Assembly: GCF_050320075.1 (NCBI RefSeq)
Contig: NZ_CP190018.1
Reading direction: 5' to 3' (one strand)
Source: Escherichia coli
GTDB taxonomy: Bacteria > Pseudomonadota > Gammaproteobacteria > Enterobacterales > Enterobacteriaceae
Length of the DNA: 64,000 bases
A model generated the notes under the pieces. That model was not told where the DNA came from. It saw only the letters and a list, made by a program, of their open reading frames with translations, and made no database searches. Shown piece after piece: positions 4,102 through 53,610 of this stretch. A program made the position numbers and the translations under genes. How positions within the stretch are numbered: the stretch's first letter is position 1; each line of letters begins with the position of its first letter.

Positions 4102-6693
4102 ATGCATCAATCTGGTTCTGTTTCTCTTTGTCGTTCCGCAATATCTGTTCTGGTGGCTACAGCGTTATATTCACCCATAGCATTGGCATCAACAGTTGAG
4201 TATGGTGAGACAGTTGATGGTGTTGTCCTGGAAAAAGATATCCAGCTGGTTTATGGGACCGCCAATAATACGAAAATCAATCCTGGCGGAGAACAGCATA
4301 TTAAAGAATTTGGTATAAGTAGTAATACTGAAATTAACGGCGGGTATCAGTACATTGAAATGAATGGCACCGCAGAATACTCAATATTAAATGATGGTTA
4401 TCAAATTGTTCAAATGGGTGGTGCGGCAAACCAGACTACCCTCAATAATGGTGTGTTACAGGTTTATGGCGCAGCGAATGAACCTACGATTAAAGGCGGG
4501 CGCTTAATTATTGAAAAAGATGGGATTACCGTCTTTGCCGCTATCGAAAAGGGAGGATTACTGGAGGTTAAAGAGGGGGGATTAGCATTTGCGGTAGATC
4601 AGAAAGCCGGCGGTGCGATTAAAACAACCACCCGGGCCATGGAGGTATTCGGAACAAACCGTCTCGGTCAGTTCGATATCAAGGATGGTATTGCTAATAA
4701 TATGCTGTTGGAAAACGGCGGAAGTTTGCGAGTTGAAGAAAATGACTTCGCTTATAATACCACTGTGGATAGTGGCGGCTTACTGGAGGTTATGGATGGC
4801 GGGACTGCAACTGGCGTTGATAAAAAAGCAGGCGGAAAATTAATTGTCTCAACGAATGCGCTGGAAGTGAGTGGTACAAACAGTAAAGGCCAATTTAGTA
4901 TAAAAGATGGTGTGTCAAAAAATTATGAACTGGATGATGGTTCCGGGCTCATTGTTATGGAGGACACGCAGGCCATTGATACTATCCTTGATGAGCATGC
5001 CACTATGCAATCGCTGGGAAAGGATACTGGTACGAGAGTGCAGGCAAATGCGGTATATGATCTCGGTCGATCAGATCAGAATGGAAGTATCACGTATTCC
5101 TCAAAAGCCATCTCTGAAAATATGGTTATCAACAATGGCCGCGCTAACGTCTGGGCTGGCACAATGGTTAACGTTTCAGTCAGAGGGAATGATGGCATTC
5201 TTGAGGTCATGAAGCCGCAAATAAATTATGCGCCCGCAATGTTGGTGGGTAAGGTAGTGGTTTCTGATAGCGCTTCTTTTAGAACGCATGGTGCCGTGGA
5301 TACCAGCAAAGCGGATGTTTCGCTCGAAAATAGCGCATGGACCATCATTGCCGATATCACTACGACGAACCAAAACACTCGCCTCAACTTAGCCAACCTT
5401 GCGATGTCTGGCGCAAATGTGATTATGATGGCTGAGCCAGTGACTCGTTCATCTGTGACGGCAAGTGCGGAAAATTTCATTACGTTGACCACCAATACCC
5501 TGTCGGGAAATGGCAATTTTTATATGCGTACCGATATGGCTAATCATCAGAGCGATCAGCTCAACGTCACCGGTCAGGCAACAGGTGATTTCAAAATATT
5601 CGTGACGGACACCGGTGCCAGCCCGGCAGCAGGAGATAGCCTTACACTGGTAACAACGGGCGGCGGTGATGCTGCATTTACGTTGGGCAATGCCGGAGGC
5701 GTTGTTGATATCGGTACGTATGAATATACCTTGCTGGATAATGGCAACCATAGCTGGAGCCTCGCAGAGAATCGCGCGCAAATTACCCCTTCAACCACTG
5801 ATGTGCTGAACATGGCAGCAGCACAACCGCTGGTATTTGATGCAGAACTGGACACCGTGCGTGAGCGTCTTGGTAGCGTAAAAGGCGTTAGTTACGATAC
5901 GGCGATGTGGAGTTCGGCAATTAACACCCGCAACAACGTGACCACTGATGCGGGAGCTGGCTTTGAGCAAACATTGACGGGCCTGACGCTCGGTATCGAT
6001 AGCCGTTTCTCCCGTGAAGAAAGCAGCACAATTCGCGGCTTGTTCTTTGGTTACTCTCATTCTGATATTGGTTTTGATCGCGGCGGCAAAGGTAATATCG
6101 ATAGCTACACCCTGGGGGCTTATGCCGGTTGGGAGCATCAGAACGGTGCCTATGTTGATGGAGTGGTGAAAGTTGACCGTTTTGCCAACACCATCCATGG
6201 CAAGATGAGTAATGGAGCAACAGCGTTTGGCGATTACAATAGTAACGGCGCGGGTGCTCATGTCGAGAGCGGGTTCCGTTGGGTTGACGGATTGTGGAGT
6301 GTTAGACCCTATCTGGCCTTTACCGGCTTTACCACAGATGGTCAGGACTACACGTTATCAAATGGCATGCGCGCGGATGTGGGAAATACCCGGATATTAC
6401 GCGCTGAAGCGGGAACGGCGGTAAGCTATCACATGGACCTGCAAAACGGTACGACGTTGGAACCCTGGCTGAAAGCCGCCGTGCGTCAGGAATACGCCGA
6501 TTCTAACCAGGTGAAAGTTAATGACGATGGCAAATTTAATAATGATGTGGCTGGAACCCGTGGCGTTTATCAGGCTGGGATAAGGTCATCGTTTACCCCG
6601 ACGTTAAGCGGTCATTTGTCAGTCAGTTATGGCAATGGCGCAGGGGTAGAATCGCCGTGGAATATTCAGGCGGGTGTGGTCTGGACGTTCTGA
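4102..6693 (+). CDS. yejO: Autotransporter (type Va) outer membrane protein, intact 863 aa
   Basis: N-terminal signal peptide, long Gly/Thr/Asn-rich repetitive passenger, C-terminal beta-barrel ending in WTF; SD-like AGGATGA upstream of the ATG. Confidence 0.75.
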   Translation: MHQSGSVSLCRSAISVLVATALYSPIALASTVEYGETVDGVVLEKDIQLVYGTANNTKINPGGEQHIKEFGISSNTEINGGYQYIEMNGTAEYSILNDGYQIVQMGGAANQTTLNNGVLQVYGAANEPTIKGGRLIIEKDGITVFAAIEKGGLLEVKEGGLAFAVDQKAGGAIKTTTRAMEVFGTNRLGQFDIKDGIANNMLLENGGSLRVEENDFAYNTTVDSGGLLEVMDGGTATGVDKKAGGKLIVSTNALEVSGTNSKGQFSIKDGVSKNYELDDGSGLIVMEDTQAIDTILDEHATMQSLGKDTGTRVQANAVYDLGRSDQNGSITYSSKAISENMVINNGRANVWAGTMVNVSVRGNDGILEVMKPQINYAPAMLVGKVVVSDSASFRTHGAVDTSKADVSLENSAWTIIADITTTNQNTRLNLANLAMSGANVIMMAEPVTRSSVTASAENFITLTTNTLSGNGNFYMRTDMANHQSDQLNVTGQATGDFKIFVTDTGASPAAGDSLTLVTTGGGDAAFTLGNAGGVVDIGTYEYTLLDNGNHSWSLAENRAQITPSTTDVLNMAAAQPLVFDAELDTVRERLGSVKGVSYDTAMWSSAINTRNNVTTDAGAGFEQTLTGLTLGIDSRFSREESSTIRGLFFGYSHSDIGFDRGGKGNIDSYTLGAYAGWEHQNGAYVDGVVKVDRFANTIHGKMSNGATAFGDYNSNGAGAHVESGFRWVDGLWSVRPYLAFTGFTTDGQDYTLSNGMRADVGNTRILRAEAGTAVSYHMDLQNGTTLEPWLKAAVRQEYADSNQVKVNDDGKFNNDVAGTRGVYQAGIRSSFTPTLSGHLSVSYGNGAGVESPWNIQAGVVWTF

Positions 6694-6755
6694 TAACAGA
6701 AAATAAACAGGCCGTGATGTGTCGCGGTCTGTTTATCGAATTAAATGCAGATATA

Positions 6756-6788
6756 AAAAAACCAACCGTAAAGGTTGGTTTTTTTTGG
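6756..6788. terminator. Bidirectional intrinsic terminator (ACCAACC-GTAAA-GGTTGGT flanked by A-run and T-run)
   Basis: Perfect 7-bp stem with A7 upstream and T8 downstream; directly followed by a degenerate copy of the tRNA-Pro 3' end, so it likely marks the island's right junction. Confidence 0.6.
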
Positions 6789-7162
6789 GATTTTTGGCAC
6801 GAGAGTAGTTTAATTGAGCCTGTAACTGTATGATTTTAAAGATGTAGATTAATTGAGTTTTGAAATCGTATATCCAAACGTATAACTAAAATGATTTGCT
6901 GCAAAAATGTACAGCTTTAACCGTTATCATTTTCCGGCTATTCGCTATGAAGCTGGCTGGTGGATAAGCACGGATAACCTGACATCTACAGCCGCCTTAA
7001 AAGCTGAACCCGACAAGCATATCGGCATCATGCCCACCAGCGTGACGCATTTTTTTAATTGCGCGGGCGTAAAAATTTGACGGGGCGGACAGTTCCATAA
7101 GTAATGGATTGCAGGAATTTCGCCCCCCCTCCTGAATGCAATTTTTCGTATATATATACAAA

Positions 7163-7290
7163 ACCACCCGTCCCACCTGTCCCGCCTGTCCCACTGGCAC
7201 CTAACAAATTGATTTTGTTAGAAATAAATTAGGTAAGGTAGGACAAGTCCAGGCTGTTTTGGGACAAGTTGGGGGGGAGGTGGGACAAGT
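7163..7290. repeat. Iteron block 1: three GTCCC units at ~10-bp spacing, 8-bp palindrome CTAACAAA-N5-TTTGTTAG, three GGGACAAGT units at ~21-bp spacing
   Basis: Read directly: TCCCACCTGTCCCGCCTGTCCCA at 7169-7194; palindrome at 7201-7221; G(G)GACAAGT at 7241, 7261, 7282. Confidence 0.6.
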
Positions 7291-7824
7291 CGAGCGAGTG
7301 AATCAAGCCGTGTTAGCGCGGTAAAGCGACAGTGCCGCCGCAATTTTGCGTTGTCGGGAGGCCACCGTAACAGCCACCATACGCGCACAATCTTCGGTGG
7401 TAACGCAATCCAGACGTGCGCAACATCCCCAGATAGGAAATCATTACCTAGCACAGCTAATTGCGCCAGAATCGATTACAGCGCGTTTCTGTGGCATTCA
7501 AGAACGGCTATCACTAGTGTATTGATATGTAATCCGCATATGAGTTTAAGCAACAAAATGATCCCCTTTCGAAAAAGGCACTAACCGTTTTTTCCGAAAT
7601 GATCCGTTGGTGATTTTGTAACTTATTGTTTTGTAGATGTAATTTTAAACTTGATAGGGTTATAAATAGGGGGCGTTTTTGTCAAGAATTGCAAATAATG
7701 CTCGTTTATTGTTCTTTGTTTGTTTGTTTTCTGTTCGTTGATGGGGGATCATTTTGCACTTTTTGGGGGATCATTTCGGAGGGGGGGGGCTGGCAACACG
7801 CCAGCACCCTCGATGCGTTTGTTT

Positions 7825-8034
7825 TTAGCAGTACTCCCAGTCTGTGGCTAGTAGGCTCTCAGGAGATAGCGTAACGCTATCCTCTGTGACGGGATTCAAC
7901 GCAATCAAATCGTTTCCGCGCCGTTCGAGAAAGACGATGTACGGAAGATGCCAGGCACTGCGGCGAGCTGGCACGCGTCGGCCTGGCTGCAACTTGTCGA
8001 GAATATCCACCAGCGAAACGTTCATGTGATTCAA
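7825..8034 (-). CDS. Hypothetical small protein (69 aa with TTG start; 66 aa from internal ATG)
   Basis: ORF with AGGAG about 5 nt upstream of the TTG; last gene of the ssb-finO-perC cluster; no recognisable family. Confidence 0.35.
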   Translation of the reverse strand: MNHMNVSLVDILDKLQPGRRVPARRSAWHLPYIVFLERRGNDLIALNPVTEDSVTLSPESLLATDWEYC

Positions 8035-8090
8035 AAAACTCCTGAAACGCTCTACAACTCAATAACACAAAAAATAATGCAGAACTGCCA

Positions 8091-8375
8091 CTATAAAACC
8101 TTGTCTGTCTGGTAGTTCCGCCAGACAGATTTTGCGATTTCTATCCCCATATCCGCCTGTGTGCGGTGTGCTGCCTCTCTCAAGCTCCCGAAATTATCCA
8201 GCATGACGGGCGAACGTGCTGCCTTGTGGATACATTTCGCGCGACGCTTTACTGCCTGTTCGCGCTCCTTATCGGTGTTCACCTGTTGCATGACCTCAGC
8301 CCATCGGGCCGCCGCTCTCCGGTACAGGCCTTTAGCCTCCAGATCTTCCGCTTTGCTGTCGTGAATCATACTCAT
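8091..8375 (-). CDS. PerC-family transcriptional activator-like protein (94 aa)
   Basis: Motif EDLEAKGLYRRAAARWAEV resembles the PerC family signature; start ATG overlaps stop of upstream gene (ATGA coupling). Confidence 0.5.
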   Translation of the reverse strand: MSMIHDSKAEDLEAKGLYRRAAARWAEVMQQVNTDKEREQAVKRRAKCIHKAARSPVMLDNFGSLREAAHRTQADMGIEIAKSVWRNYQTDKVL

Positions 8376-8908
8376 ACGCCAGCTTGCTCCTTGTTCGACT
8401 TACGTTTGCGCTTCTCTTTCAGTGCCATCAGTCGTGCTTCCGCGTCCTGCTGTTCCTGTTGTGTCACCTCGCCGCATGGCTGGCTATTCAGATCGTAACG
8501 CACGCCACCAGCCATTAAGGCACGGTAATAACGCGGAGAATGAGCATAAGATGCTAGCGCCGCACGTAATGCCCCTGACCCAAAAGCCAGCGCCCTGACG
8601 GCAATATCCTGTATCAGGTCTTCAAATATTCCTACCTTAAGCGGCTTCGGTGATTCCAGGCTGAATAATTCAGGCCATAGTTCAATAAGACGGTTAACGC
8701 GCCTGCGGTTTTTGCCCTGGCGTTTGGTCATATGCCGCCACGGTGTCGCCCCTGTGGGCTTCTGTTTGCGGCTCTGCTGTGCGTTCTGATTGCCGGGTAT
8801 CACTTTATGCGCTGATGTGGTTTTATCCTGCTGCTGTGTCGTCTGTGTCTTTTTCTGTGGTATGCCGTAAATGCCTTTCGGTTTTCTGCTAATAGTCAGT
8901 GTAGTCAT
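8372..8908 (-). CDS. ProQ/FinO-domain RNA-binding protein (178 aa) with basic low-complexity N-terminal extension
   Basis: C-terminal two thirds align by eye with E. coli ProQ N-terminal domain (PLKVGIFEDL..., LRAAL.SY..S.RY...GG.RYDL...PCGE). Confidence 0.6.
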   Translation of the reverse strand: MTTLTISRKPKGIYGIPQKKTQTTQQQDKTTSAHKVIPGNQNAQQSRKQKPTGATPWRHMTKRQGKNRRRVNRLIELWPELFSLESPKPLKVGIFEDLIQDIAVRALAFGSGALRAALASYAHSPRYYRALMAGGVRYDLNSQPCGEVTQQEQQDAEARLMALKEKRKRKSNKEQAGV

Positions 8909-8943
8909 TATTTGTTAACCTCTGTTAGTGAATCCACTGGCAG

Positions 8944-9369
8944 TTAAAATGGTATTTCGTCCTCATACGGGTCATCCTGCTGGCCCGTCTGCTGCTTTGT
9001 TCTGTTCAGTGCGTCAGTAGCCTGCCCTTGCTGTCCTTTCCTGCCTCCTGGTCGCACGGTTCGCGCACTGATTACGCTGCCTGCGATGACCTGCCAGCCC
9101 TGCCGCATTTCCCCGTTCTGGTCTGTCCACTGGCTTATCTGCATGTTACCCGCCACGCTCACCAGTTCGCCTTTCTGGTGTTTTGCCAGTGCATCGGCCT
9201 GTCTGCCAAACGCCAGGACGGATAACCACATCGTCGCTGTTCCGTCATATGCCTGACTGCACGGAAGGGGAACAGCCATACTCACCAGCGCCATTGGTGT
9301 TCCCTTGCTGGTGGTTTTTAACTGCGGGTCAGCCACCAACCGCCCGTAAGCTGATATTTGTGCCGTCAT
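8944..9369 (-). CDS. ssb: Single-stranded DNA-binding protein (SSB-like, 141 aa)
   Basis: OB-fold pattern similar to E. coli SSB (W..V.AFG, WTDQNG) and acidic C-terminal tail EDEIPF (cf. DDDIPF). Confidence 0.6.
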   Translation of the reverse strand: MTAQISAYGRLVADPQLKTTSKGTPMALVSMAVPLPCSQAYDGTATMWLSVLAFGRQADALAKHQKGELVSVAGNMQISQWTDQNGEMRQGWQVIAGSVISARTVRPGGRKGQQGQATDALNRTKQQTGQQDDPYEDEIPF

Positions 9370-9444
9370 ATTGTCTGCTCTCCGGTTTTAAATGTTGGTT
9401 GGATTTTTAATGTCCACCAGCCAGGCAAAAAATAACGCCTGCTG

Positions 9445-9580
9445 ACTTGTCCCAAAATGCTCCTAACTTGTCCCAAAATCACCTTAACTTGTCCCGCTCT
9501 TGTCCCACTTTTTCTGATATTACCCAATATAATTCAGTATGTTATGTGTGTTTCTCACAGGTTGGGACAGGTGGGACAAG
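9445..9580. repeat. Iteron block 2: four ACTTGTCCC units (~21-bp spacing) plus GGGACAGGTGGGACAAG; inverted copy of block 1
   Basis: ACTTGTCCC at 9445, 9466, 9487; TTGTCCC at 9500; GGGACAGGTGGGA at 9564-9576 is the exact reverse complement of TCCCACCTGTCCC in block 1. Confidence 0.6.
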
Positions 9581-9605
9581 AGTCTTTAAACCTACACGCG
9601 AGAGA

Positions 9606-11741
9606 TTAACCACCTTCATCATCATGATCCTGTGCAAGTAAAAGGCCGTACACCCTTAGTCGTGCCCCCTTCATGTGCTTAAGACGTGGTGTTCTGATTT
9701 GCCATCCTTCCCCGCTGGCTGGCTTTTTCAGCATTCCGGCTTCGTGAAGGGCTCTTGCTACGGCATCCTTGTTAAATCCCTTCGCCACATGCGATTTAAA
9801 TGGCTCCGGCAGGACGTAAAACAAAACAGGCTCACCGTAACGCCCCTCGCTTTCCCTGTAGCCGTACAGTTCTGAAATCGGCAGGCTTGCAGGGTCATAA
9901 TTGACAGGCGCAAACCTGCTCATGCCGTAGGCAGTAAGAAATGCCTCTGCCTGTTCAATAATCTGCCTGTGTTCCTTGTTACCCGTGCCGAACTCCTTCA
10001 CCCAGGCATTAAAGTTATGCTGAATGGCATCACAGCACGTCTGAACATTCCAGCCCGTAACATGACCGGACAGCACAAGCGCGGCCTCCAGTATGGCGAA
10101 TCGTTCCCCTACGCGATGAACCTGTTCGCCGTAGCTCTCCGGTATTAGGTTGCGCCACCGTTCACGGCACGCCCTTACCGTGTCCTTAGCCTCCTGCTGG
10201 TGGGCTGCCAGCCATTTAACCCATTCACGACCCGCCGCCCCGTGGTTTTCTGTCCAGGCGGCTTTTAACGCGTCTGCGTGCGCCTTTCCTGTGCTGTATT
10301 CGTGAAACTGCGTAGACTTCTCCATCGGCACGTTAAGCAACCTGACAAGCTGCCCCGCCTTGACTTTTATCCCCTCACTTTTGAGGAATGTTTCAACATC
10401 CATTTCTCCGGTACTGATCGCCACCGTGCGCCAGTGTTTTATCTCCCGGTTGCCGCCGTCCTTCGCCCCCTGTAATTTCCCGGAACCGTTAAACAGCGTA
10501 TAGGCTGACGTGGACACCTCCCGCGCGTTTCCGGCCTGGCCTATTTCATCCAGGGGTAACAGCCCGTCGTTGTGCGCCTCTGCCTCGTTAGCGATACCTA
10601 ACGCTGTGCCGTACCAGGTCAGCCGTTGCGCGTCCGGCTCTCCCCATAAACTTGATGCGATGTTCTGTGTGGTGGTTTTCCCTGCCGATGATTGTTCGAA
10701 AAGATGTACCCCGAAGCCGTCAGCGCCCACCAGCCCGATTAATGGTGCTGATAACGATACCGCCACACCCAGCATCATGGACGGATTACCACCAGCCAGT
10801 CGCGCCACTGTATCGCGCCAGCCCTCTGTCGTTCCTGCTACGGAATAACCATTAACGGCAGCCGTTTTTCCGGTAAACAGGATCGGTTTTTCAGACTCAC
10901 CAATGACTGAACCGTCCGGCATGATGTACGCGCCAAAATGCCACCCCGTTGTTGTGCTTAACTGCCATTCCTCATGGTTTCCGTTTAACTGCATCCAGTC
11001 AGCCAGGATAGCCCTGTATTTGCCGTTGGTTGTCACATTGAGTCCGTGGTCTTTCAGCAGCCGCCAGCCGTCACGGTCGCCAATGCCACCGCACGGGATC
11101 GCCATTGTGATGACTTCATGATTTGCTAATTTTTTCCAGCGCATCACGCGGTAATGCTCTTTACCGATCGTTCCCGTTCCCAGTAGTTCAAGCGGGGAAC
11201 ATAACCACGCCTCAGGCCGGATAATTTCGCCTGACTGTTTGTCAACTTTGGGCGTTACCCAGAAAACACCATCGGCGCGACTTTCAACGCGGGGTTTTAA
11301 TTCATCATCGCCCTGGCTTTCTGTGATTTTTTTCTTTAAGGGCAACACCAGACTTTCCCCGCGCTCGTATTCGTCTTTGAGGCGAGGCAACTGGTCGGAT
11401 AAATCCGCCGGGCTGGTGTCAGTTATCCCCGCATATTCGTATACGGTCTTCACGCCAGCCACAGCCAGCAATGTGACGATCTGTGTAAGGCTACGTTCAG
11501 TGATGTGCCCTGCGCGGTAAACACGCACACACTGACGGCTATCATCAATAATCTGATAACCGGTAATATCTTTCAGGTGTTCATCTGACAGAACGACAGG
11601 CGGCACATTGTCGGCGGCAATATGCTTACCTGCCCATTCCTGCCACTCTTTCGCATGGCTCCACGCATCACTACCCGCAAAAATGATAACCTCCGTCATT
11701 TTGTCGGCTGGCTGGTGCTTTAAGTTCGGTGCGCGTTTCAT
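9606..11741 (-). CDS. Replicative primase-helicase (TOPRIM-like N-terminus plus P-loop NTPase, 711 aa)
   Basis: Walker A-like SSAGKTT, large size, position downstream of int/alpA as in P4 alpha-type and PICI pri-rep genes; start overlaps upstream small ORF. Confidence 0.75.
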   Translation of the reverse strand: MKRAPNLKHQPADKMTEVIIFAGSDAWSHAKEWQEWAGKHIAADNVPPVVLSDEHLKDITGYQIIDDSRQCVRVYRAGHITERSLTQIVTLLAVAGVKTVYEYAGITDTSPADLSDQLPRLKDEYERGESLVLPLKKKITESQGDDELKPRVESRADGVFWVTPKVDKQSGEIIRPEAWLCSPLELLGTGTIGKEHYRVMRWKKLANHEVITMAIPCGGIGDRDGWRLLKDHGLNVTTNGKYRAILADWMQLNGNHEEWQLSTTTGWHFGAYIMPDGSVIGESEKPILFTGKTAAVNGYSVAGTTEGWRDTVARLAGGNPSMMLGVAVSLSAPLIGLVGADGFGVHLFEQSSAGKTTTQNIASSLWGEPDAQRLTWYGTALGIANEAEAHNDGLLPLDEIGQAGNAREVSTSAYTLFNGSGKLQGAKDGGNREIKHWRTVAISTGEMDVETFLKSEGIKVKAGQLVRLLNVPMEKSTQFHEYSTGKAHADALKAAWTENHGAAGREWVKWLAAHQQEAKDTVRACRERWRNLIPESYGEQVHRVGERFAILEAALVLSGHVTGWNVQTCCDAIQHNFNAWVKEFGTGNKEHRQIIEQAEAFLTAYGMSRFAPVNYDPASLPISELYGYRESEGRYGEPVLFYVLPEPFKSHVAKGFNKDAVARALHEAGMLKKPASGEGWQIRTPRLKHMKGARLRVYGLLLAQDHDDEGG

Positions 11742-12025
11742 TTCTTGCCCCCAGTAACCAGCATTTCGCGGATTTTGCGGATATATCTTGCTGCACGGTT
11801 CTGATTTACGGTTTCACGATGATCCACCAGCGTAAAATCACGCTGGAACTGATAAACAGGCATCACGCAGTCATATTCGTATCCTTCACGGCGGTAGGTC
11901 ATGCGTCGTTCACTCACGCCCTTAATCATTACCGTGCTGCCGTATTTATCGCGGTAAATATCGCCGTGCATGAATTCAGGACGAGTTTTACCGCTGGCAG
12001 TAAAGCCAGAATTTTTTGCTTTCAT
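11738..12025 (-). CDS. Hypothetical protein (95 aa), translationally coupled to primase-helicase
   Basis: ORF stop overlaps primase start codon; coding-like composition; no family recognised. Confidence 0.45.
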   Translation of the reverse strand: MKAKNSGFTASGKTRPEFMHGDIYRDKYGSTVMIKGVSERRMTYRREGYEYDCVMPVYQFQRDFTLVDHRETVNQNRAARYIRKIREMLVTGGKK

Positions 12026-12064
12026 TTATCGAATTACGTTTTTGTTAAAGCTGTATTAATGAGA

Positions 12065-12250
12065 TTAATGAACTGTCGCCACTTCAATTACGGCACGGAT
12101 CATCACCTGCGTGAACCCACAGCCGATTAACTCTTCTTTCAATATTGCGATAGCTGCATTAACGCTGGTGGCGTTCACGTTTTGCTGATTATCAATAACG
12201 TGGCCTTGATGATTTACAGCGCGTGCGGTTATCTGAAATCGCTTAAGCAT
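12065..12250 (-). CDS. Hypothetical small protein (61 aa)
   Basis: ORF preceded by GGGGTGAGG SD-like sequence; start overlaps stop of upstream small ORF. Confidence 0.4.
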   Translation of the reverse strand: MLKRFQITARAVNHQGHVIDNQQNVNATSVNAAIAILKEELIGCGFTQVMIRAVIEVATVH

Positions 12251-12431
12251 GCCTCACCCCCTGACGAATACGGGCAGCGAATACAGCAACACAGCCGGAC
12301 GGGCAACAGTTACGCGCTTCTCGTTCGGTTGATGCCTCGACGTGAACAATACGGGAATCAGTCGGATTAAAGATGACAAAGCGCCAGATAAATGTGTTTT
12401 GAGAATGTTCGAGGGTAGGGGTAGTAGCCAT
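12243..12431 (-). CDS. Small protein (62 aa), possibly Icd-like (host cell division inhibitor-like) as annotated in P4-like elements
   Basis: Strong SD AGGAGG 7 nt upstream of ATG; FIWRF and FAAR motifs recalled from Icd-like annotations (memory-based, uncertain). Confidence 0.45.
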   Translation of the reverse strand: MATTPTLEHSQNTFIWRFVIFNPTDSRIVHVEASTEREARNCCPSGCVAVFAARIRQGVRHA

Positions 12432-12640
12432 TTGGCAGCCTCCTGTAACGTTGGGATATACCCACCGCCGGAGGTGGTAAGCTCGATGGCGGTGGACTGT
12501 ACAGGGTTACCACAACTGGTGTTACAGGAAACCAGCCTGACCGAAGTCAGCCCCATACAGCCCACCATTGATAAGGCGTGCGCGTGCGCCGATACAAAAA
12601 AAGACGCCTGGCGCGTCTGTATCGCCTGTAACTCCAGCGG
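12432..12640 (-). ncRNA. Candidate structured regulatory RNA / leader (P4 immunity-like seqA-seqB-seqC arrangement)
   Basis: On the minus strand: GTTACAGG (12632-12625), intrinsic terminator, UUCG-tetraloop hairpin (12550-12537), complementary CCTGTAAC (12528-12521), then GTTACAGGAGG (12449-12439) overlapping the SD of the first ORF. Confidence 0.3.
12595..12618 (-). terminator. Intrinsic terminator inside the leader region (AGACGC-loop-GCGTCT followed by T7 on minus strand)
   Basis: 6-bp GC-rich stem, 5-nt loop, run of seven T on the transcribed strand. Confidence 0.5.
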
Positions 12641-13077
12641 GGTGGTAATCCCGACACCCGTTTTATGAGGTGCGCAGGGAGTATATCCCGTTTTCTTGCT
12701 CATGTGGTCGGATGTGTTGAAGGTGTGCCCACCACACAAATCACATTGCTCACCAGCCGGAAATATGGCATTGTTGGCGATGCATTCAAGTTTAATATAT
12801 GCCTTCTGGCGACCCTCTGCGGTCGCCTTTGTTTTATTCGTAAGCAACATATTTCTTTTGTCGTTTAAGCTATGCGATTGTACGTTTCCGTTTAAAACGG
12901 AAGTGCTATTAGTTCAATTAATTCGTTCGTACGGTTTGAACTGAATAATAACATCAGCCATAATTTTTTATGGTTGAACGAAAACCTGCCCCTGTTTGGG
13001 CATTTTTGCCAGTATTCATAATGTTCTCTCTTAATTGTTTTGTTGCTTGATAGTAATCAGGCCAGCGTTAATCACAC

Positions 13078-13522: not shown

Positions 13523-14767
13523 TTATTTTATTCCGCGTAATCCTCTGTGCCCGCTGGCGATGGTTGTTCCGGTTGCGGCTGCTTCCACAAAATCACCCCA
13601 CCAGCACATTAACACTTTACGTTTTTCCAGGTAGTTGCTTCGGTTGTATGCCCGTCTAACTTCGTTTGTGTCCACGTGGGCTAGTGCGGCTTCGATCACG
13701 TCAGGTTCAAATCCTTCTTCATTCGCCGCCGTGCTGAATATTGCGCGTAGTCCGTGAGATACCAGCACACCAGCGTAACCCATTCGTCGTAATGCTGCGT
13801 TTGCTGTCTGGCTGCTCATTGATTGCACTGGATTTTTAAGACTTGGGAAAACATGCTCCCTTCGTGCGCTAATCGGCTTCATGGCTTCAAGCACTGCCAT
13901 CGCCTGAGCGCAAAGGGGGATCACATGATCACGGCGCATCTTCATGCGTCCGGCTGGTATCGTCCAGGTTGCCGCCTCAAGGTTGATTTCTTCCCACCGT
14001 GCGGCGGAGGCTTCGGCTGGGCGGGTTGCGGTTAACAACTGCCACTCAATCAGCAATCTGGTTTGCCGTTCTATGCTGGCGATCGATAAATCGTGCATTA
14101 GCTGCGGTAGTTGTTCCGGTCGGATGGTTGGCATGTGCTTTTTGGTGGGGGAAGGGAATGCCTTGCGAACGTTCGCGGCGGTGTTGATGTCAATCAGTCC
14201 ACTGTTGGCAGCAAAATCCATCACTTCATTGATGCGCTGTAAAACGCGTTTCAGTGTTTCCAGGTTGCCACGTGCCTTGATGGGCGTGAGTATCTCAACA
14301 AAGCGGCGAGCGGTGAGAGTATCTATCGGTGTGTTTCCGATATACGGGAATACATATTTCTCTAGCGAGCGCCAGATGTCCTTGATCGTATTGTGGGCGA
14401 GATTCTGGTTTTTTTTCATTTCGTACCACAATGCGGCCACATTTTCGAACGTGTTGCCCTGTCGTCGAGCCTCTGCTTCGAGTTTTTGCCGTTCGTATTC
14501 CTGCGGGTCGGTTCCTGCCGCAATTAACGTCCTGTACTCGCTACGGCGTTTTCTGGCATCAGCCAGGGAGACTTCATCAAGCGAGCCCAAACTAATGATT
14601 GTTCGTTTTTTGTTCGATGGTCGATAGTAGTTGAATCGCCATAGTTTCGAACCAGACGGCTTAATAACGAGAAAAAGCCCGCCGCCATCCTGTAAGGTGT
14701 ATTCTTTTTCCGCTGGTTTAGCTGCTTTGATCTGTGTGGTGGTGAGTGGGGTCGCCTTTCTTGCCAT
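13523..14767 (-). CDS. int: Tyrosine site-specific integrase, P4-type (414 aa)
   Basis: N-terminal arm-binding-like domain (LTTTQIKAAKP...GGGLFLVIKPSGSKLWRF), C-terminal catalytic region with HGLRA and terminal tyrosine region; adjacent to tRNA gene. Confidence 0.85.
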   Translation of the reverse strand: MARKATPLTTTQIKAAKPAEKEYTLQDGGGLFLVIKPSGSKLWRFNYYRPSNKKRTIISLGSLDEVSLADARKRRSEYRTLIAAGTDPQEYERQKLEAEARRQGNTFENVAALWYEMKKNQNLAHNTIKDIWRSLEKYVFPYIGNTPIDTLTARRFVEILTPIKARGNLETLKRVLQRINEVMDFAANSGLIDINTAANVRKAFPSPTKKHMPTIRPEQLPQLMHDLSIASIERQTRLLIEWQLLTATRPAEASAARWEEINLEAATWTIPAGRMKMRRDHVIPLCAQAMAVLEAMKPISARREHVFPSLKNPVQSMSSQTANAALRRMGYAGVLVSHGLRAIFSTAANEEGFEPDVIEAALAHVDTNEVRRAYNRSNYLEKRKVLMCWWGDFVEAAATGTTIASGHRGLRGIK

Positions 14768-14973: not shown

Positions 14974-15050
14974 TGGTCGGCACGAGAGGATTTGAACCTC
15001 CGACCCCCGACACCCCATGACGGTGCGCTACCAGGCTGCGCTACGTGCCG
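14974..15050 (-). tRNA. proL: tRNA-Pro (anticodon GGG), 77 nt with encoded CCA
   Basis: Reverse complement reads CGGCACGTAGCGCAGCCTGGTAGCGCACCGTCATGGGGTGTCGGGGGTCGGAGGTTCAAATCCTCTCGTGCCGACCA; cloverleaf with GGG in anticodon loop. Confidence 0.9.
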
Positions 15051-39851: not shown

Positions 39852-41543
39852 ATGAAAACGCTGCTGATTATTGACGCTAATCTCGGTCAGGCACGCGCCT
39901 ATATGGCGAAGACCCTGCTGGGCGCGGCGGCGCGAAAAGCAAAACTGGAAATCATCGACAATCCGAACGACGCTGAAATGGCGATTGTTCTCGGTGATTC
40001 CATCCCGAACGACAGCGCGCTGAACGGTAAAAATGTCTGGCTGGGCGATATTTCCCGGGCAGTTGCGCACCCTGAGCTGTTCCTGAGTGAAGCCAAAGGC
40101 CATGCGAAACCTTACACTGCGCCGGTCGCTGCGACAGCACCGGTTGCCGCCAGCGGTCCGAAACGCGTAGTTGCGGTGACTGCTTGCCCGACTGGCGTAG
40201 CACACACCTTTATGGCGGCTGAAGCCATTGAAACCGAAGCGAAAAAACGTGGCTGGTGGGTGAAAGTTGAAACCCGTGGTTCGGTTGGCGCGGGTAATGC
40301 AATCACCCCTGAAGAAGTAGCCGCAGCAGATCTGGTGATTGTGGCGGCAGATATTGAAGTGGATCTGGCGAAATTTGCTGGTAAACCGATGTATCGCACC
40401 TCTACCGGTCTGGCGCTGAAGAAAACCGCGCAGGAACTGGATAAAGCGGTTGCTGAAGCAACGCCGTATGAACCGGCGGGCAAAACTCAAACAGCGACCA
40501 CTGAAGGTAAGAAAGAGAGTGCAGGCGCTTACCGTCACTTGCTGACGGGCGTCTCTTACATGCTGCCGATGGTCGTTGCAGGTGGTCTGTGTATCGCGCT
40601 TTCTTTTGCTTTTGGTATCGAAGCGTTTAAAGAGCCGGGTACGTTGGCTGCGGCGCTGATGCAGATTGGTGGTGGTTCAGCCTTTGCGTTGATGGTGCCG
40701 GTACTGGCAGGTTATATTGCCTTTTCCATTGCCGATCGTCCGGGTCTCACGCCGGGTCTGATTGGCGGTATGCTGGCGGTCAGCACCGGTTCTGGCTTCA
40801 TTGGCGGTATTATTGCGGGCTTCCTGGCTGGTTACATTGCGAAGTTAATCAGTACGCAATTGAAACTGCCACAGAGTATGGAGGCGCTGAAACCGATTCT
40901 GATCATTCCGCTAATTTCCAGTCTGGTGGTCGGTCTGGCGATGATCTACCTGATCGGTAAACCGGTTGCTGGCATTCTCGAAGGGTTGACTCACTGGCTG
41001 CAGACCATGGGGACTGCGAATGCGGTTCTGCTGGGGGCGATCCTCGGTGGCATGATGTGTACTGACATGGGCGGTCCGGTAAACAAAGCAGCGTACGCGT
41101 TCGGTGTGGGTCTGCTGAGTACTCAAACCTATGGCCCGATGGCGGCGATTATGGCGGCAGGTATGGTGCCACCGCTGGCAATGGGCCTGGCAACAATGGT
41201 GGCGCGTCGTAAATTCGACAAAGCGCAGCAGGAAGGTGGCAAAGCCGCTCTGGTATTGGGACTGTGCTTCATTTCGGAAGGTGCAATTCCGTTTGCTGCC
41301 CGTGATCCGATGCGAGTGCTGCCGTGCTGTATCGTGGGTGGGGCGCTGACTGGCGCAATCTCAATGGCGATTGGTGCGAAACTGATGGCACCGCACGGTG
41401 GTCTGTTTGTTCTGCTGATCCCTGGCGCGATTACGCCGGTATTGGGTTACCTGGTAGCCATTATTGCCGGTACGCTGGTGGCGGGTCTGGCCTATGCCTT
41501 CCTGAAACGTCCGGAAGTGGACGCAGTAGCGAAAGCAGCGTAA
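39852..41543 (+). CDS. fruA: Fructose PTS EIIB'BC component FruA, 563 aa
   Basis: Duplicated IIB domains with CPTGVAHT cysteine motif and C-terminal IIC membrane domain. Confidence 0.9.
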   Translation: MKTLLIIDANLGQARAYMAKTLLGAAARKAKLEIIDNPNDAEMAIVLGDSIPNDSALNGKNVWLGDISRAVAHPELFLSEAKGHAKPYTAPVAATAPVAASGPKRVVAVTACPTGVAHTFMAAEAIETEAKKRGWWVKVETRGSVGAGNAITPEEVAAADLVIVAADIEVDLAKFAGKPMYRTSTGLALKKTAQELDKAVAEATPYEPAGKTQTATTEGKKESAGAYRHLLTGVSYMLPMVVAGGLCIALSFAFGIEAFKEPGTLAAALMQIGGGSAFALMVPVLAGYIAFSIADRPGLTPGLIGGMLAVSTGSGFIGGIIAGFLAGYIAKLISTQLKLPQSMEALKPILIIPLISSLVVGLAMIYLIGKPVAGILEGLTHWLQTMGTANAVLLGAILGGMMCTDMGGPVNKAAYAFGVGLLSTQTYGPMAAIMAAGMVPPLAMGLATMVARRKFDKAQQEGGKAALVLGLCFISEGAIPFAARDPMRVLPCCIVGGALTGAISMAIGAKLMAPHGGLFVLLIPGAITPVLGYLVAIIAGTLVAGLAYAFLKRPEVDAVAKAA

Positions 41544-41554
41544 TAAAAGGTGTG

Positions 41555-41584
41555 TTACAGGGCAGAAATTTCCTGCCCTGTAAC
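41555..41584 (+). terminator. Stem-loop downstream of fruA (12-bp perfect stem GTTACAGGGCAG...CTGCCCTGTAAC)
   Basis: Read directly; a second hairpin GGGCAGA..TCTGCCC plus T6 follows at about 41701-41727. Confidence 0.6.
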
Positions 41585-41810
41585 ATTTGATGCGCGCAAA
41601 GAGAATGACCGGTTTGTGAATGTAATTTTATGAATTTAAATGGTTTTATCTTTTAGTGGAAACCTGAAACTTTCATCAAACACTAAGGTTATTTCCTCAA
41701 GGGCAGATTAATTTCTGCCCTTTTTTAGTGTTCCTGTTCTGTGCATCCCGTCACAGGTGATGCTGCCAACTTACTGATTTAGTGTATGATGGTGTTTTTG
41801 AGGTGCTCCA

Positions 41811-42086
41811 GTGGCTTCTGTTTCTATCAGCTGTCCCTCCTGTTCAGCTACTGACGGGGTGGTGCGTAACGGCAAAAGCACCGCCGGACATCAGCGCTAT
41901 CTCTGCTCTCACTGCCGTAAAACATGGCAACTGCAGTTCACTTACACCGCTTCTCAACCCGGTACGCACCAGAAAATCATTGATATGGCCATGAATGGCG
42001 TTGGATGCCGGGCAACTGCCCGCATTATGGGCGTTGGCCTCAACACGATTTTCCGCCATTTAAAAAACTCAGGCCGCAGTCGGTAA
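41811..42086 (+). CDS. insA: IS1 InsA (91 aa)
   Basis: [43 protein letters not shown]... zinc-finger/HTH protein of IS1. Confidence 0.9.
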
Positions 42087-42508
42087 CCTCGCGCATACAG
42101 CCGGGCAGTGACGTCATCGTCTGCGCGGAAATGGACGAACAGTGGGGATACGTCGGGGCTAAATCGCGCCAGCGCTGGCTGTTTTACGCGTATGACAGGC
42201 TCCGGAAGACGGTTGTTGCGCACGTATTCGGTGAACGCACTATGGCGACGCTGGGGCGTCTTATGAGCCTGCTGTCACCCTTTGACGTGGTGATATGGAT
42301 GACGGATGGCTGGCCGCTGTATGAATCCCGCCTGAAGGGAAAGCTGCACGTAATCAGCAAGCGATATACGCAGCGAATTGAGCGGCATAACCTGAATCTG
42401 AGGCAGCACCTGGCACGGCTGGGACGGAAGTCGCTGTCGTTCTCAAAATCGGTGGAGCTGCATGACAAAGTCATCGGGCATTATCTGAACATAAAACACT
42501 ATCAATAA
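42005..42508 (+). CDS. insB: IS1 InsB reading frame (expressed as InsAB' transposase by -1 frameshift)
   Basis: Frame contains [22 protein letters not shown]...[13 protein letters not shown] typical of IS1 InsB; listed start is the open-frame boundary, not a true initiation codon. Confidence 0.8.
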
Positions 42509-42523
42509 GTTGGAGTCATTACC

Positions 42524-43391
42524 ACATCCGGCAATAGATTTATTAGGCATCACCATTGTGGCGGGTAATCAGACGCTTGATAAAACATTAATTAATGGCC
42601 TGAATGTTTGCCAGAAACTGGAGATTAATGTTCCGGTTTATGCGGGGATGCCACAGCCCATTATGCGTCAACAAATCGTTGCCGATAATATTCACGGTGA
42701 AACCGGACTGGATGGCCCGGTATTCGAGCCGCTGACCCGCCAGGCAGAAAGCACTCATGCGGTGAAATATATCATCGATACCCTGATGGCAAGCGATGGC
42801 GATATCACTCTGGTGCCGGTTGGTCCGCTTTCAAATATCGCGGTGGCAATGCGCATGCAGCCCGCAATCCTGCCGAAAATCCGTGAAATTGTGCTGATGG
42901 GCGGCGCTTACGGTACTGGCAACTTTACGCCATCCGCCGAGTTCAACATCTTTGCTGACCCGGAAGCCGCACGCGTGGTGTTCACCTCCGGCGTTCCGTT
43001 GGTGATGATGGGCCTCGATCTCACCAACCAGACCGTTTGCACCCCGGACGTGATTGCCCGGATGGAAAGGGCAGGCGGCCCTGCCGGAGAGCTGTTCAGC
43101 GACATCATGAACTTCACTCTCAAAACCCAGTTCGAAAACTATGGCCTGGCTGGCGGCCCGGTGCACGACGCCACCTGCATCGGTTATCTGATCAACCCTG
43201 ATGGCATTAAAACCCAGGATATGTACGTCGAAGTGGATGTTAACAGTGGCCCTTGCTATGGGCGTACCGTCTGCGACGAGCTGGGCGTTCTTGGCAAGCC
43301 AGCCAATACCAAAGTCGGCATCACTATTGATACCGACTGGTTCTGGGGCTTAGTCGAAGAGTGCGTGCGCGGCTACATCAAAACCCATTAA
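42524..43391 (+). pseudogene. rihB: rihB (pyrimidine-specific ribonucleoside hydrolase), 5'-truncated by IS1; lacks the N-terminal DxDxxxDD region
   Basis: Translation matches RihB from about residue 21 onward ([19 protein letters not shown]...); apparent TTG start of the six-frame ORF lies inside the IS1 end. Confidence 0.75.
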
Positions 43392-43490: not shown

Positions 43491-44741
43491 ATGGATGTCA
43501 TGAGAAGTGTTCTGGGAATGGTTGTATTGCTGGCAATTACGTTTTTGCTGTCAGTAAACAAGAAGAAGATCAGCCTGCGTACCGTTGGCGCGGCGTTAGT
43601 GTTACAGGTCGTGATTGGCGGCATTATGCTTTGGTTACCACCAGGGCGTTGGGTCGCAGAAAAAGTCGCTTTTGGCGTGCATAAAGTGATGGCGTACAGC
43701 GATGCAGGTAGCGCATTTATCTTTGGTTCTCTGGTCGGACCGAAAATGGATACCTTATTTGATGGCGCAGGATTTATCTTTGGTTTCAGGGTATTACCGG
43801 CAATTATCTTCGTTACAGCACTGGTGAGTATTCTCTACTACATCGGTGTGATGGGGATCTTAATTCGCATTCTCGGCGGTATCTTCCAGAAAGCATTAAA
43901 TATCAGCAAGATCGAGTCATTCGTCGCGGTCACTACCATTTTCCTCGGGCAAAACGAAATTCCGGCAATCGTCAAACCCTTTATCGATCGGCTGAATCGC
44001 AATGAATTATTTACAGCGATTTGTAGTGGCATGGCCTCGATTGCTGGTTCGACAATGATTGGTTACGCTGCACTGGGCGTGCCTGTGGAATATCTGCTGG
44101 CGGCATCGTTAATGGCGATCCCCGGCGGGATCTTGTTTGCCCGCCTGTTAAGCCCGGCTACCGAATCTTCGCAGGTTTCCTTTAATAACCTCTCTTTCAC
44201 CGAAACTCCGCCAAAAAGCTTTATCGAAGCAGCGGCGAGCGGTGCGATGACCGGACTGAAAATCGCCGCAGGTGTGGCGACAGTGGTGATGGCATTTGTT
44301 GCAATAATTGCGTTGATTAACGGTATTATCGGCGGCGTTGGCGGCTGGTTTGGTTTTGAACATGCCTCGCTGGAGTCCATTTTAGGTTACCTGTTGGCTC
44401 CACTGGCGTGGGTGATGGGGGTTGACTGGAGTGATGCGAATCTTGCCGGGAGTTTGATTGGACAGAAACTGGCGATTAATGAATTTGTCGCTTACCTCAA
44501 TTTCTCACCTTATCTGCAAACAGCTGGCACTCTGGATGCTAAAACCGTGGCGATTATTTCCTTCGCGTTGTGCGGTTTCGCTAACTTTGGTTCTATCGGG
44601 GTGGTGGTGGGGGCGTTTTCTGCGGTTGCGCCACACCGTGCGCCGGAAATCGCCCAGCTTGGTTTACGCGCGCTGGCGGCGGCGACACTTTCTAACCTGA
44701 TGAGTGCCACCATTGCAGGATTCTTTATTGGCTTAGCGTAG
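43491..44741 (+). CDS. nupX: Concentrative nucleoside transporter NupX (CNT family), 416 aa
   Basis: Polytopic membrane protein with CNT-family motifs; synteny with rihB. Confidence 0.8.
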   Translation: MDVMRSVLGMVVLLAITFLLSVNKKKISLRTVGAALVLQVVIGGIMLWLPPGRWVAEKVAFGVHKVMAYSDAGSAFIFGSLVGPKMDTLFDGAGFIFGFRVLPAIIFVTALVSILYYIGVMGILIRILGGIFQKALNISKIESFVAVTTIFLGQNEIPAIVKPFIDRLNRNELFTAICSGMASIAGSTMIGYAALGVPVEYLLAASLMAIPGGILFARLLSPATESSQVSFNNLSFTETPPKSFIEAAASGAMTGLKIAAGVATVVMAFVAIIALINGIIGGVGGWFGFEHASLESILGYLLAPLAWVMGVDWSDANLAGSLIGQKLAINEFVAYLNFSPYLQTAGTLDAKTVAIISFALCGFANFGSIGVVVGAFSAVAPHRAPEIAQLGLRALAAATLSNLMSATIAGFFIGLA

Positions 44742-52167: not shown

Positions 52168-52193
52168 TGTACTGACCCCAAAAAGTTGGACAG

Positions 52194-53045
52194 TTAAACA
52201 CGAGGCATATAGGTCTGATTCCGATATTCAATTGGAGTCAGACCTTTTAATTTCAGGCTAATTCTTCTGCTGTTGTAGTATTCAATATATTCCGTAACAG
52301 CATCCTTCAGTTCGCTTATATTACTGAACTCATCAAGATAAAAACACTCCGACTTTAAGGTTCCAAAGAAACACTCCACCACAGCATTATCCAGACAATT
52401 GCCTTTTCTGGACATGCTTTGTTTAATACCATGTTCTTTAAGGATATTTTGATATCTTCTCATACGATACTGCCATCCCTGGTCAGAGTGCAGAACAGGA
52501 TGCTCGTGAGGATTAAGCTTTTTGAATGCCTGATCGAGCATATTCTCAACCATGTTCATCACTGGTCTTTCCGAAAGGCTGTAAGAAATAACTTCGTTGT
52601 TGAAGAGATCTATTACTGGAGACAAATACAGCTTGCGCCCATTGACTACAAATTCAGTAACATCGGTAACCCACTTCTCGTTTGGCCGCGTAGCCTTGAA
52701 ATCTCTTTGGAGAACATTAGGGGCGGTTTGCCCTACCTCTCCTCTGTAAGAGCGGTATCGCTTGACCTTAATCGCTGCTTTAAGTGAGAGGGTTCCCATC
52801 AGGCGCTGAACAGCTTTATGGTTAATCTGTTTCCCTTCTCGATGAAGAGACAGCGTTACCCTACGGTATCCGTATCGGCCTCTATTCTCGTGATAAATCT
52901 CACCAATACGCTTTTTAACGTCCGCATACTTGTCAGGCTTGCTGAGAGCCTTTAGATGGTAATAAAACGTACTGCGCGGTATCTCCGCAGCCCTGAGAAG
53001 CTCATCAAGAGGATAAAACTGCCTTAGCTCGTTGAGTACTTTTAC
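52194..53045 (-). CDS. insK: IS150 orfB (InsK, DDE transposase domain; fused to orfA by -1 frameshift)
   Basis: Integrase-core motifs (HSDQGWQY...); upstream boundary approximated at the orfA/orfB overlap. Confidence 0.75.
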
Positions 53046-53563
53046 TTTTTCGTGGGATGAGCTAAGGCTTTCAGCTTTTTTAGATACATAAGCCGCGTTT
53101 CAAGAAATCGAACTTGCCTTTCAAGATCCTCAATGCGTCGGTCTTTTGACAGCTCCAATGCTGATGCCGCTTTTTCTGGATCAACTGATATTGCAATGTT
53201 TCTTTTGGTGCCAATCTTGAGCGCGCGTAAACCAGCTTCTCCGCGCTCTTCATAGACCTTCAGCCACCTGGCTACAGAACCACTACCAGCAAGCATAAAG
53301 TGAGCAGCAGCCTGATTAAGGGACATGTGCTGCTCGATCACAGCTTTCACGACCTTAATACGCAACTCTGGATCAGCACTAACGCCTTTAGGTTTGGGAA
53401 TTAAACCTTTTTCTCCATGTTTTTCATAGAGGGCAACCCATGTCCTGACCTGGGTTCGGGGGACACCAAAACGTGCCGAGATGATCCTGTAACCATCATC
53501 AGTTGTGAAGTAGTGATTCACGACTTCAAGGCGCTTTTCAAAAGGGTATTTTGGCTTTGACAT
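53042..53563 (-). CDS. insJ: IS150 orfA (InsJ, HTH protein), 173 aa
   Basis: MSKPKYPFEKRLEVVNHYFTTDDGYRIISARFGVPRTQVRTWVALYEKHG... matches IS150 InsJ as recalled. Confidence 0.9.
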   Translation of the reverse strand: MSKPKYPFEKRLEVVNHYFTTDDGYRIISARFGVPRTQVRTWVALYEKHGEKGLIPKPKGVSADPELRIKVVKAVIEQHMSLNQAAAHFMLAGSGSVARWLKVYEERGEAGLRALKIGTKRNIAISVDPEKAASALELSKDRRIEDLERQVRFLETRLMYLKKLKALAHPTKK

Positions 53564-53610
53564 ATTAGGGGCTATTCCATTTCATCGTCCAACAAAATGG
53601 GTGCAGTACA

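Follow-up and report, generated by a model that had tools for sequence, protein, structure and literature searches.

An IS1-mediated deletion between fruA and rihB in a clone of Escherichia coli

Introduction

In Escherichia coli K-12 MG1655, the fructose uptake gene fruA is followed in order by psuK, psuG, psuT, yeiL, rihB, and nupX. In the 64,000-nucleotide stretch of E. coli DNA analyzed here (contig NZ_CP190018.1 of RefSeq assembly GCF_050320075.1, hereafter the window), fruA is followed by a single copy of the insertion sequence IS1 and then by a rihB gene that lacks its 5' end. The locus raises the question of how the genes between fruA and rihB came to be missing, and by which route a lone IS1 came to occupy their place. 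A preliminary description of the window, made from the sequence alone, proposed that IS1 had replaced psuK-psuG-psuT-yeiL and the beginning of rihB, either by an IS-mediated adjacent deletion or by recombination between two IS1 copies. Comparison with other E. coli genomes supports this proposal and makes an IS1-mediated deletion of some kind almost certain. The route by which it arose is a matter of degree and is weighed below.

Extent of the missing interval

Alignment of the window to MG1655 gives a missing interval of 4,395 bp (MG1655 positions 2,255,113-2,259,507) between collinear flanks of 96.7-97.6% identity. Strain M217 is far more similar to the window, with collinear flanks of 99.94-99.98% identity, and relative to its copy of the locus (L004, the coordinate system for all junctions given below) 4,392 bp are absent, from 8071 to 12462. 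Both flanks have the same order and orientation as the reference, and the gap abuts both IS1 termini exactly, so that a single insertion sequence stands at a novel joint as is expected of an adjacent deletion. An inversion or translocation at the locus was considered and rejected in view of the collinear flanks. The K-12 gene order on which the preliminary description relied is correct; the MG1655 alignment places psuKGT and yeiL at this position, and both alignments agree with the gene content proposed for the deletion.

The left end of the deletion lies 211 bp upstream of psuK's start codon, and the DNA removed comprises the psuK promoter, psuK, psuG, psuT, yeiL, the yeiL-rihB spacer, and nucleotides 1-74 of rihB. 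No psuK-psuG-psuT cluster lies in the window, and the sole match to the psuT region within the window is its paralogue nupX, at 80%. The absence of psuK and psuG applies to the locus and the window, the whole genomes of the two relatives described below (YZLc1-3 and Ec-U3) not having been searched for a displaced copy.

The IS1 element and its flanks

The element between the flanks is a complete IS1 (Table 1). Active IS1 is about 768 bp long and has imperfect terminal repeats of about 23 bp and a frameshifted insA-insB' (PMC12428005), and the window copy has the same organization. The -1 frameshift motif of IS1, A6C, lies at 42062-42068 and joins the insA and insB' frames into a 232-aa InsAB' transposase. 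The NCBIfam model for IS1 transposase (NF033558) matches both frames (E = 1.8e-25 and 6.4e-42), and the corresponding RefSeq protein, WP_095033700.1, is annotated with a programmed frameshift. With both frames open, the element looks transposition-competent. Its right end had been placed at 42540 in the preliminary description, but the element ends at 42523 and the additional 17 nt belong to rihB.

The 8-9-bp target-site duplication that accompanies an IS1 insertion is missing. The flanking 9-mers, CCCGTCACA on the left and ACATCCGGC on the right, are different, as had been noted from the sequence along with the intact IS1 ends. A search of the flanks for duplications of other lengths and at other offsets found only the trinucleotide ACA in common, an agreement with a 1/64 probability of arising by chance. 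The missing duplication would be expected after an IS-mediated deletion and is no argument against the identity of the element as IS1. If IS1 landed first at the left site, CCCGTCACA would be the target duplication. The window contains its own control in the form of an IS150 element in cirA (52168-53610), which is flanked by a clean 3-bp duplication (ACC), indicating that missing duplications are not a general property of the assembly. An Rfam scan of the region from 41 to 44 kb gave no match.

A derived, clone-specific allele

Among 5,426 complete E. coli genomes, each of the two junctions (queried with 70 nt of flank joined to 27 nt of IS1) was found in only two. These genomes are YZLc1-3, from chicken feces in China, and Ec-U3, from human urine in Burkina Faso. 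The window differs from YZLc1-3 by 1 base in 64 kb and from Ec-U3 by 2 over the 41.4 kb that were aligned. Over nupX-yeiH, these two are the sole genomes with 100% identity to the window; identity there is 99.9% for the next relatives (Sanji, C1, AR_0150, and others), in which the interval is intact. The interval is likewise kept in relatives whose junction flanks are 100% identical to those of the window (for example, M217, AR_0150, C1, and Sanji). Of the complete genomes, 5,386 (99.3%) cover at least 80% of the interval, and psuG is wholly missing in 18. The state of the window is therefore derived, rare, and specific to a clone of which the window is a third near-identical member. In two genomes, the feature already has a RefSeq annotation as IS1 and a partial rihB. 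Ec-U3 has identical IS1 junctions and an uninterrupted cirA, which implies that the deletion predates the insertion of IS150.

These comparisons bear on whether there was a deletion at all. Copies of insertion sequences are a common cause of misjoins, and the structure could in principle be an assembly collapse across IS1 repeats, or psuKGT-yeiL may never have been present in the lineage. Either explanation is barely credible. Base for base, the window has the same junctions as two complete genomes that were sequenced independently and come from different hosts and continents, and with three independent sequences in agreement an assembly artifact was rejected. Ancestral absence was also rejected, since rihB is cut in mid-codon, and hence was once a whole gene, and relatives with identical junction flanks keep the interval. 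The existence of 18 genomes without psuG is also compatible with true loss.

The only difference between the window and YZLc1-3 lies at 39280, in codon 128 of fruK, where the window has T and YZLc1-3 has G. G is also found in Ec-U3, M217, K-12, and six other strains, and the T changes TGG to TGT (Trp128Cys). FruK is otherwise invariant, and the substitution could be genuine and private to the window or could reflect an error in sequencing.

Recurrent IS1 activity between fruA and rihB

When the two flanks alone were used as the query, 11 genomes were found in which fruA and rihB are joined, each with a single IS1 between them. Mapped onto M217, these represent nine distinct junction pairs, that of the window included, and no duplication is present in any of them. 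The left junctions are at 8070, 8076, 8112, 8175 (two genomes), 8238, 8300, 8324, and 8565, and the right junctions are at 12257, 12296, 12314, 12335, 12463, 12613, 12669, 12716, and 12900. Six left junctions fall within 8070-8238; the right junctions are spread over 12257-12900 and include coding sequence of normal GC content. Both IS1 orientations and several IS1 variants are represented, and each deletion is limited to one or two genomes. On this count, E. coli has lost this block of genes to IS1 on at least nine independent occasions.

Eight of the natural deletions (EC23HZZ201, HZ13, 2017.10.01CC, CP61_Sichuan, NH-21, 2018-11-3CC, X14-3, and 3502) resemble the window in gene loss, in having a single IS1, and in lacking a duplication, but they differ from it in junctions, IS1 variants, and orientations and are independent of it. 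In four of these genomes rihB is intact, whereas in others it is cut deeper than in the window. In EC23HZZ201, HZ13, 2017.10.01CC, and NH-21, the distance from the end of IS1 to the start codon of an intact downstream rihB is 54-132 bp, and yeiL and the native upstream region are gone.

The fruA-psuK spacer is 423 bp long and 62% AT. At least five unrelated genomes have a simple IS1 insertion in this spacer with a duplication of 8-9 bp. The insertion sites (8033-40, 8055-63, approximately 8070-78, 8086-94, and 8167-75) bracket the left junction of the window at 8070. These insertions (PigCaeca_1, VG1046-3E9, CX21, J-8, and RIVM_C037791) share a 140-bp target region with the window, but they retain their duplications, psuKGT-yeiL-rihB is intact in each, and none is at the exact site of the window. 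The IS1 of PigCaeca_1 is 2 nt different from the window copy, lies 7 bp away, and has the same orientation.

One lineage allows the polarity of the deletions to be read. CP61_Sichuan and 2017.10.01CC are identical across 1,380 bp of flank, and their IS1 copies differ by 1 nt. They have the left junction 8175 in common, and their right ends are at 12669 and 12257, respectively. Judged from these junctions, the two deletions are nested and share a fixed IS1 end on the left. Nesting was seen in this lineage; the two relatives of the window have identical junctions. The IS1 of J-8 (positions 2162-2929 of its locus, L019), which has a duplication, is at the same 9-bp target (AAACATGCA) as the IS1 of the CP61_Sichuan/2017.10.01CC lineage, and the two variants differ by 24 nt. 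Independent use of AAACATGCA by two IS1 variants in different lineages points to a hot spot for IS1 at the level of the site. Strain 35 and 2017.10.01CC have the right junction 12257 in common and different left junctions.

Smaller IS1 deletions exist within yeiL. In strain 410, yeiL contains two identical IS1 copies arranged head to tail (positions 726-1493 and 1501-2268 of its locus, L022) and separated by 7 bp. The outer flanks are duplicated (CGGACGGTA), and the arrangement resembles an IS1 tandem dimer.

Route of the deletion

Adjacent deletions caused by IS1 and Tn9 are classic in the gal region. IS1 and Tn9 are established sources of such deletions, after which the remaining element lacks direct repeats (PMC9330008). 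When an IS lacks its duplication, the cause is usually adjacent deletion or recombination between IS copies, and it is common for deletions to grow in steps from an IS that is already in place (PMC11708052). The reference alignments, the collinear flanks, and the retention of the interval in 99.3% of complete genomes support the two routes put forward in the preliminary description.

The moderately favored route is a left-anchored adjacent deletion, started by an IS1 that had already inserted downstream of fruA. In the first step of this route, IS1 would have transposed into the AT-rich fruA-psuK spacer and duplicated CCCGTCACA. In the second, the resident IS1 would have undergone intramolecular replicative transposition into rihB codon 25. 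The left junction of IS1 would have been kept and its right end joined to the new target in rihB, and the intervening DNA, along with the duplication's right-hand copy, would have left as a non-replicating circle and been lost. The route is favored because the left junction lies within a dense cluster of independent IS1 insertions, because the right junctions scatter into ordinary coding sequence, and because the sole lineage in which polarity can be read, CP61_Sichuan/2017.10.01CC, is left-anchored. The proposed steps are those of IS1/Tn9 intramolecular replicative transposition, in which one end keeps its junction, the other joins a new target nearby, and no duplication remains. There is no mechanistic difference from the IS1/Tn9 deletions, although here the event is reconstructed from natural isolates. 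The IS150 deletions of the E. coli long-term evolution experiment (PMC11708052) also have the IS at the center of the deletion, no duplication, and stepwise growth, and the nesting seen in CP61_Sichuan and 2017.10.01CC matches this pattern. IS150 belongs to the IS3 family, and in the experiment the precursor was proven by a time series, whereas the case made here concerns IS1 and is comparative.

Several observations weigh against this reading. The genomes surveyed were picked by similarity to this locus and are not an unbiased sample. None of the 5,426 complete genomes has IS1 at one of the two junctions alone, and precursor-specific k-mers for both polarities (left junction, AGTTGGAGTCATTACC followed by CCCGTCACA and AATTCC; right junction, GCGAA followed by ACATCCGGC and GGTGATGCTGCC) had zero exact matches in JGI metagenome contigs. 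The right junction also lies in a stretch of 60% AT, which is acceptable to IS1; AT content was accordingly discarded as a guide to the end that was hit first, both junctions being approximately 60% AT. Recombination between IS1 copies at two hot spots would account just as well for the reuse of 12257 with different left junctions. The final structure is the same whether the deletion was left-anchored, right-anchored, or the product of recombination between two copies.

RecA-dependent recombination between two direct IS1 copies, one in the spacer and one in rihB, would leave a hybrid IS1 with half of each duplication, exactly the structure observed. It is a possible origin of the allele, although distinctly less probable than left-anchored deletion. 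IS1 has repeatedly targeted both ends of the interval, 2017.10.01CC pairs the left junction of the simple insertion in J-8 with the right junction of strain 35, and the lineage has approximately 20 IS1-matching places per chromosome. Recombination between IS copies is also a frequent cause of missing duplications (PMC11708052). Recombination would require two prior, independent insertions in the same orientation 4.4 kb apart, but the junction searches and the k-mers revealed no sequence with IS1 at either site alone or at both, and no simple IS1 insertion was found in the rihB coding sequence of the genomes examined. The window IS1 is 2 nt from several copies and provides no mosaic that would be informative for recombination.

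The polarity could also have been reversed. An IS1 that landed first in rihB codons 25-28, duplicating ACATCCGGC, and then transposed leftward into the spacer would give an identical outcome. The 5' region of rihB is 60% AT, and the spacer, as a preferred IS1 target, would be attractive for intramolecular transposition. This right-anchored order is nevertheless unlikely: it has no precursor in the complete genomes or the JGI metagenome contigs, the fixed end in the CP61_Sichuan/2017.10.01CC lineage is on the left, and it is the left junctions that cluster and the right junctions that scatter.

Less probable by far is the capture of IS1 in one step at a chromosomal break or deletion joint, in which no duplication would be made. 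Such capture has been proposed for some IS5 and IS481 events (PMC11708052), and it would also leave an IS without duplication at the center of a deletion. One-step capture is hypothetical and has not been proposed for IS1. The IS deletions of the long-term experiment were all attributed to an IS already in residence, from which an adjacent deletion then arose (PMC11708052), and the nested deletions at the fruA-rihB locus fit a two-step route.

Neighboring genes and the rihB remnant

To the left of IS1, fruB, fruK, and fruA are intact. IS1 begins 28 nt past a terminator-like hairpin and T-run downstream of fruA, which refines the preliminary description, in which the fruA terminator region was said to run straight into IS1. 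The coordinates of these and other features at the locus are given in Table 1.

Table 1. Features at the fruA-IS1-rihB locus, in window coordinates
Feature	Position	Strand	Description	Basis
fruA	39852-41543	+	Intact phosphotransferase system (PTS) fructose IIBC; last gene of fruBKA	Full-length match to NCBIfam NF007984 (1173.7 bits); RefSeq YZLc1-3
Additional hairpin	41553-41585		3' of fruA	Consensus scan
Terminator-like hairpin and T-run	41699-41728	+	3' of fruA	Consensus scan, not evidence of function
Left flanking 9-mer	41747-41755		CCCGTCACA; fruA-psuK spacer	Equals M217 L004 8062-8070
IS1	41756-42523	+	Complete, 768 bp; IS1B-like per RefSeq	Length and ends, M217 alignment
Left terminal repeat (IRL)	41756-41778		GGTGATGCTGCCAACTTACTGAT	18/23 positions match IRR
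Right terminal repeat (IRR)	42501-42523		GGTAATGACTCCAACTTATTGAT	18/23 positions match IRL
insA	41811-42086	+	91 aa	Open reading frame list
InsAB' transposase	41811-42508	+	232 aa; insB' frame open	Reconstructed frameshift product
Right flanking 9-mer	42524-42532		ACATCCGGC; last base of rihB codon 25 to codon 28	Equals M217 L004 12463-12471
rihB remnant	42524-43391	+	Nucleotides 75-942 of 942	NCBIfam NF007417, M217 RihB translation
nupX	43491-44741	+	Intact NupC-family nucleoside transporter	TIGR00804, 501 bits; RefSeq

The rihB remnant has no promoter, no start codon, and none of residues 1-25; the rest of its product is identical to residues 26-313 of M217 RihB. In the alignment to NF007417 (profile length 313), residues 4-293 correspond to profile positions 24-313. 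The missing residues include D9, D11, D15, and D16, which form the motif D9-x-D11-x-x-x-D15-D16 (DxDxxxDD), so that the remnant is without the N-terminal motif that supplies Ca2+ ligands in this pyrimidine-preferring, Ca2+-dependent nucleoside hydrolase. In RihA, the equivalent residues Asp10 and Asp15 bind the catalytic Ca2+ (PMC2898832). The loss of this motif had been correctly described, but rihB resumes at the third base of codon 25, with His26 as the first whole codon, rather than at approximately codon 21. RefSeq marks rihB in the relatives as incomplete, with a missing N-terminus. From its sequence, the remnant is classed as a pseudogene.

An open reading frame from a TTG at 42510, inside IRR, runs in frame into the rihB remnant. 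It is a mechanical open reading frame, and a functional IS1::rihB fusion from this codon was rejected as the catalytic motif is gone and nothing suggests expression.

Other features of the window

The IS150 that splits cirA (approximately 50.8-54.2 kb), the gene for the catecholate siderophore/colicin I receptor, is 1,443 bp long and has its transposase on the minus strand. A P4-like integrative island of approximately 6.7-15.05 kb adjoins tRNA-Pro (14977-15050). It contains genes for an integrase (13523-14767), a truncated ash, an Icd-like protein, a DUF927 primase-like protein, SSB, ProQ/FinO, and PerC, as well as Rfam matches to C4 antisense RNA (12485-12572) and isrK (12597-12673). A 1.4-kb stretch of the island (6694-8090) is without an annotated gene, and a search for att repeats of the island yielded none of at least 14 nt. 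The autotransporter gene yejO (4102-6693) is an uninterrupted open reading frame of 863 aa.

Consequences and significance

PsuK and PsuG degrade pseudouridine to give uracil together with ribose-5-phosphate (PMC9247573). The clone is predicted to be without pseudouridine catabolism and salvage, having lost the only known route from pseudouridine to these products. The putative transporter PsuT would also be lost, together with the CRP/FNR-type regulator YeiL, and RihB would be inactivated; fruBKA and nupX appear structurally intact. RihB has been reported to be physiologically silent in K-12 (PMC2898832). A search of the literature found no paper that links psuK, yeiL, or rihB with IS1 deletions.

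The at least nine fruA-IS1-rihB events, together with the partial deletions, account for most of the 18 genomes without psuG. Since the events are limited to one or two genomes each and the interval is kept in nearly all strains, their recurrence points to a mutational hot spot that purifying selection keeps in balance, rather than to an adaptive sweep. It has also been considered that the locus is an IS1 fragile site between two AT-rich hot spots and that repeated loss of psuKGT-yeiL is selected in some niches instead of being a purely mutational outcome, which is doubtful. If it were true, the benefit could come from shedding pseudouridine catabolism or the control exerted by YeiL, or from an IS1 positioned immediately upstream of rihB-nupX, which are normally silent; the four genomes with an intact rihB have this arrangement.

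The feature is an ordinary, textbook footprint of an IS1 deletion, of a kind that is rare in E. coli yet has arisen repeatedly. It matters chiefly at the local scale, and the allele could serve as a lineage marker. The locus illustrates that a missing target duplication flags an IS-mediated deletion, and that an IS1 hot spot beside dispensable genes gives the same gene loss repeatedly.

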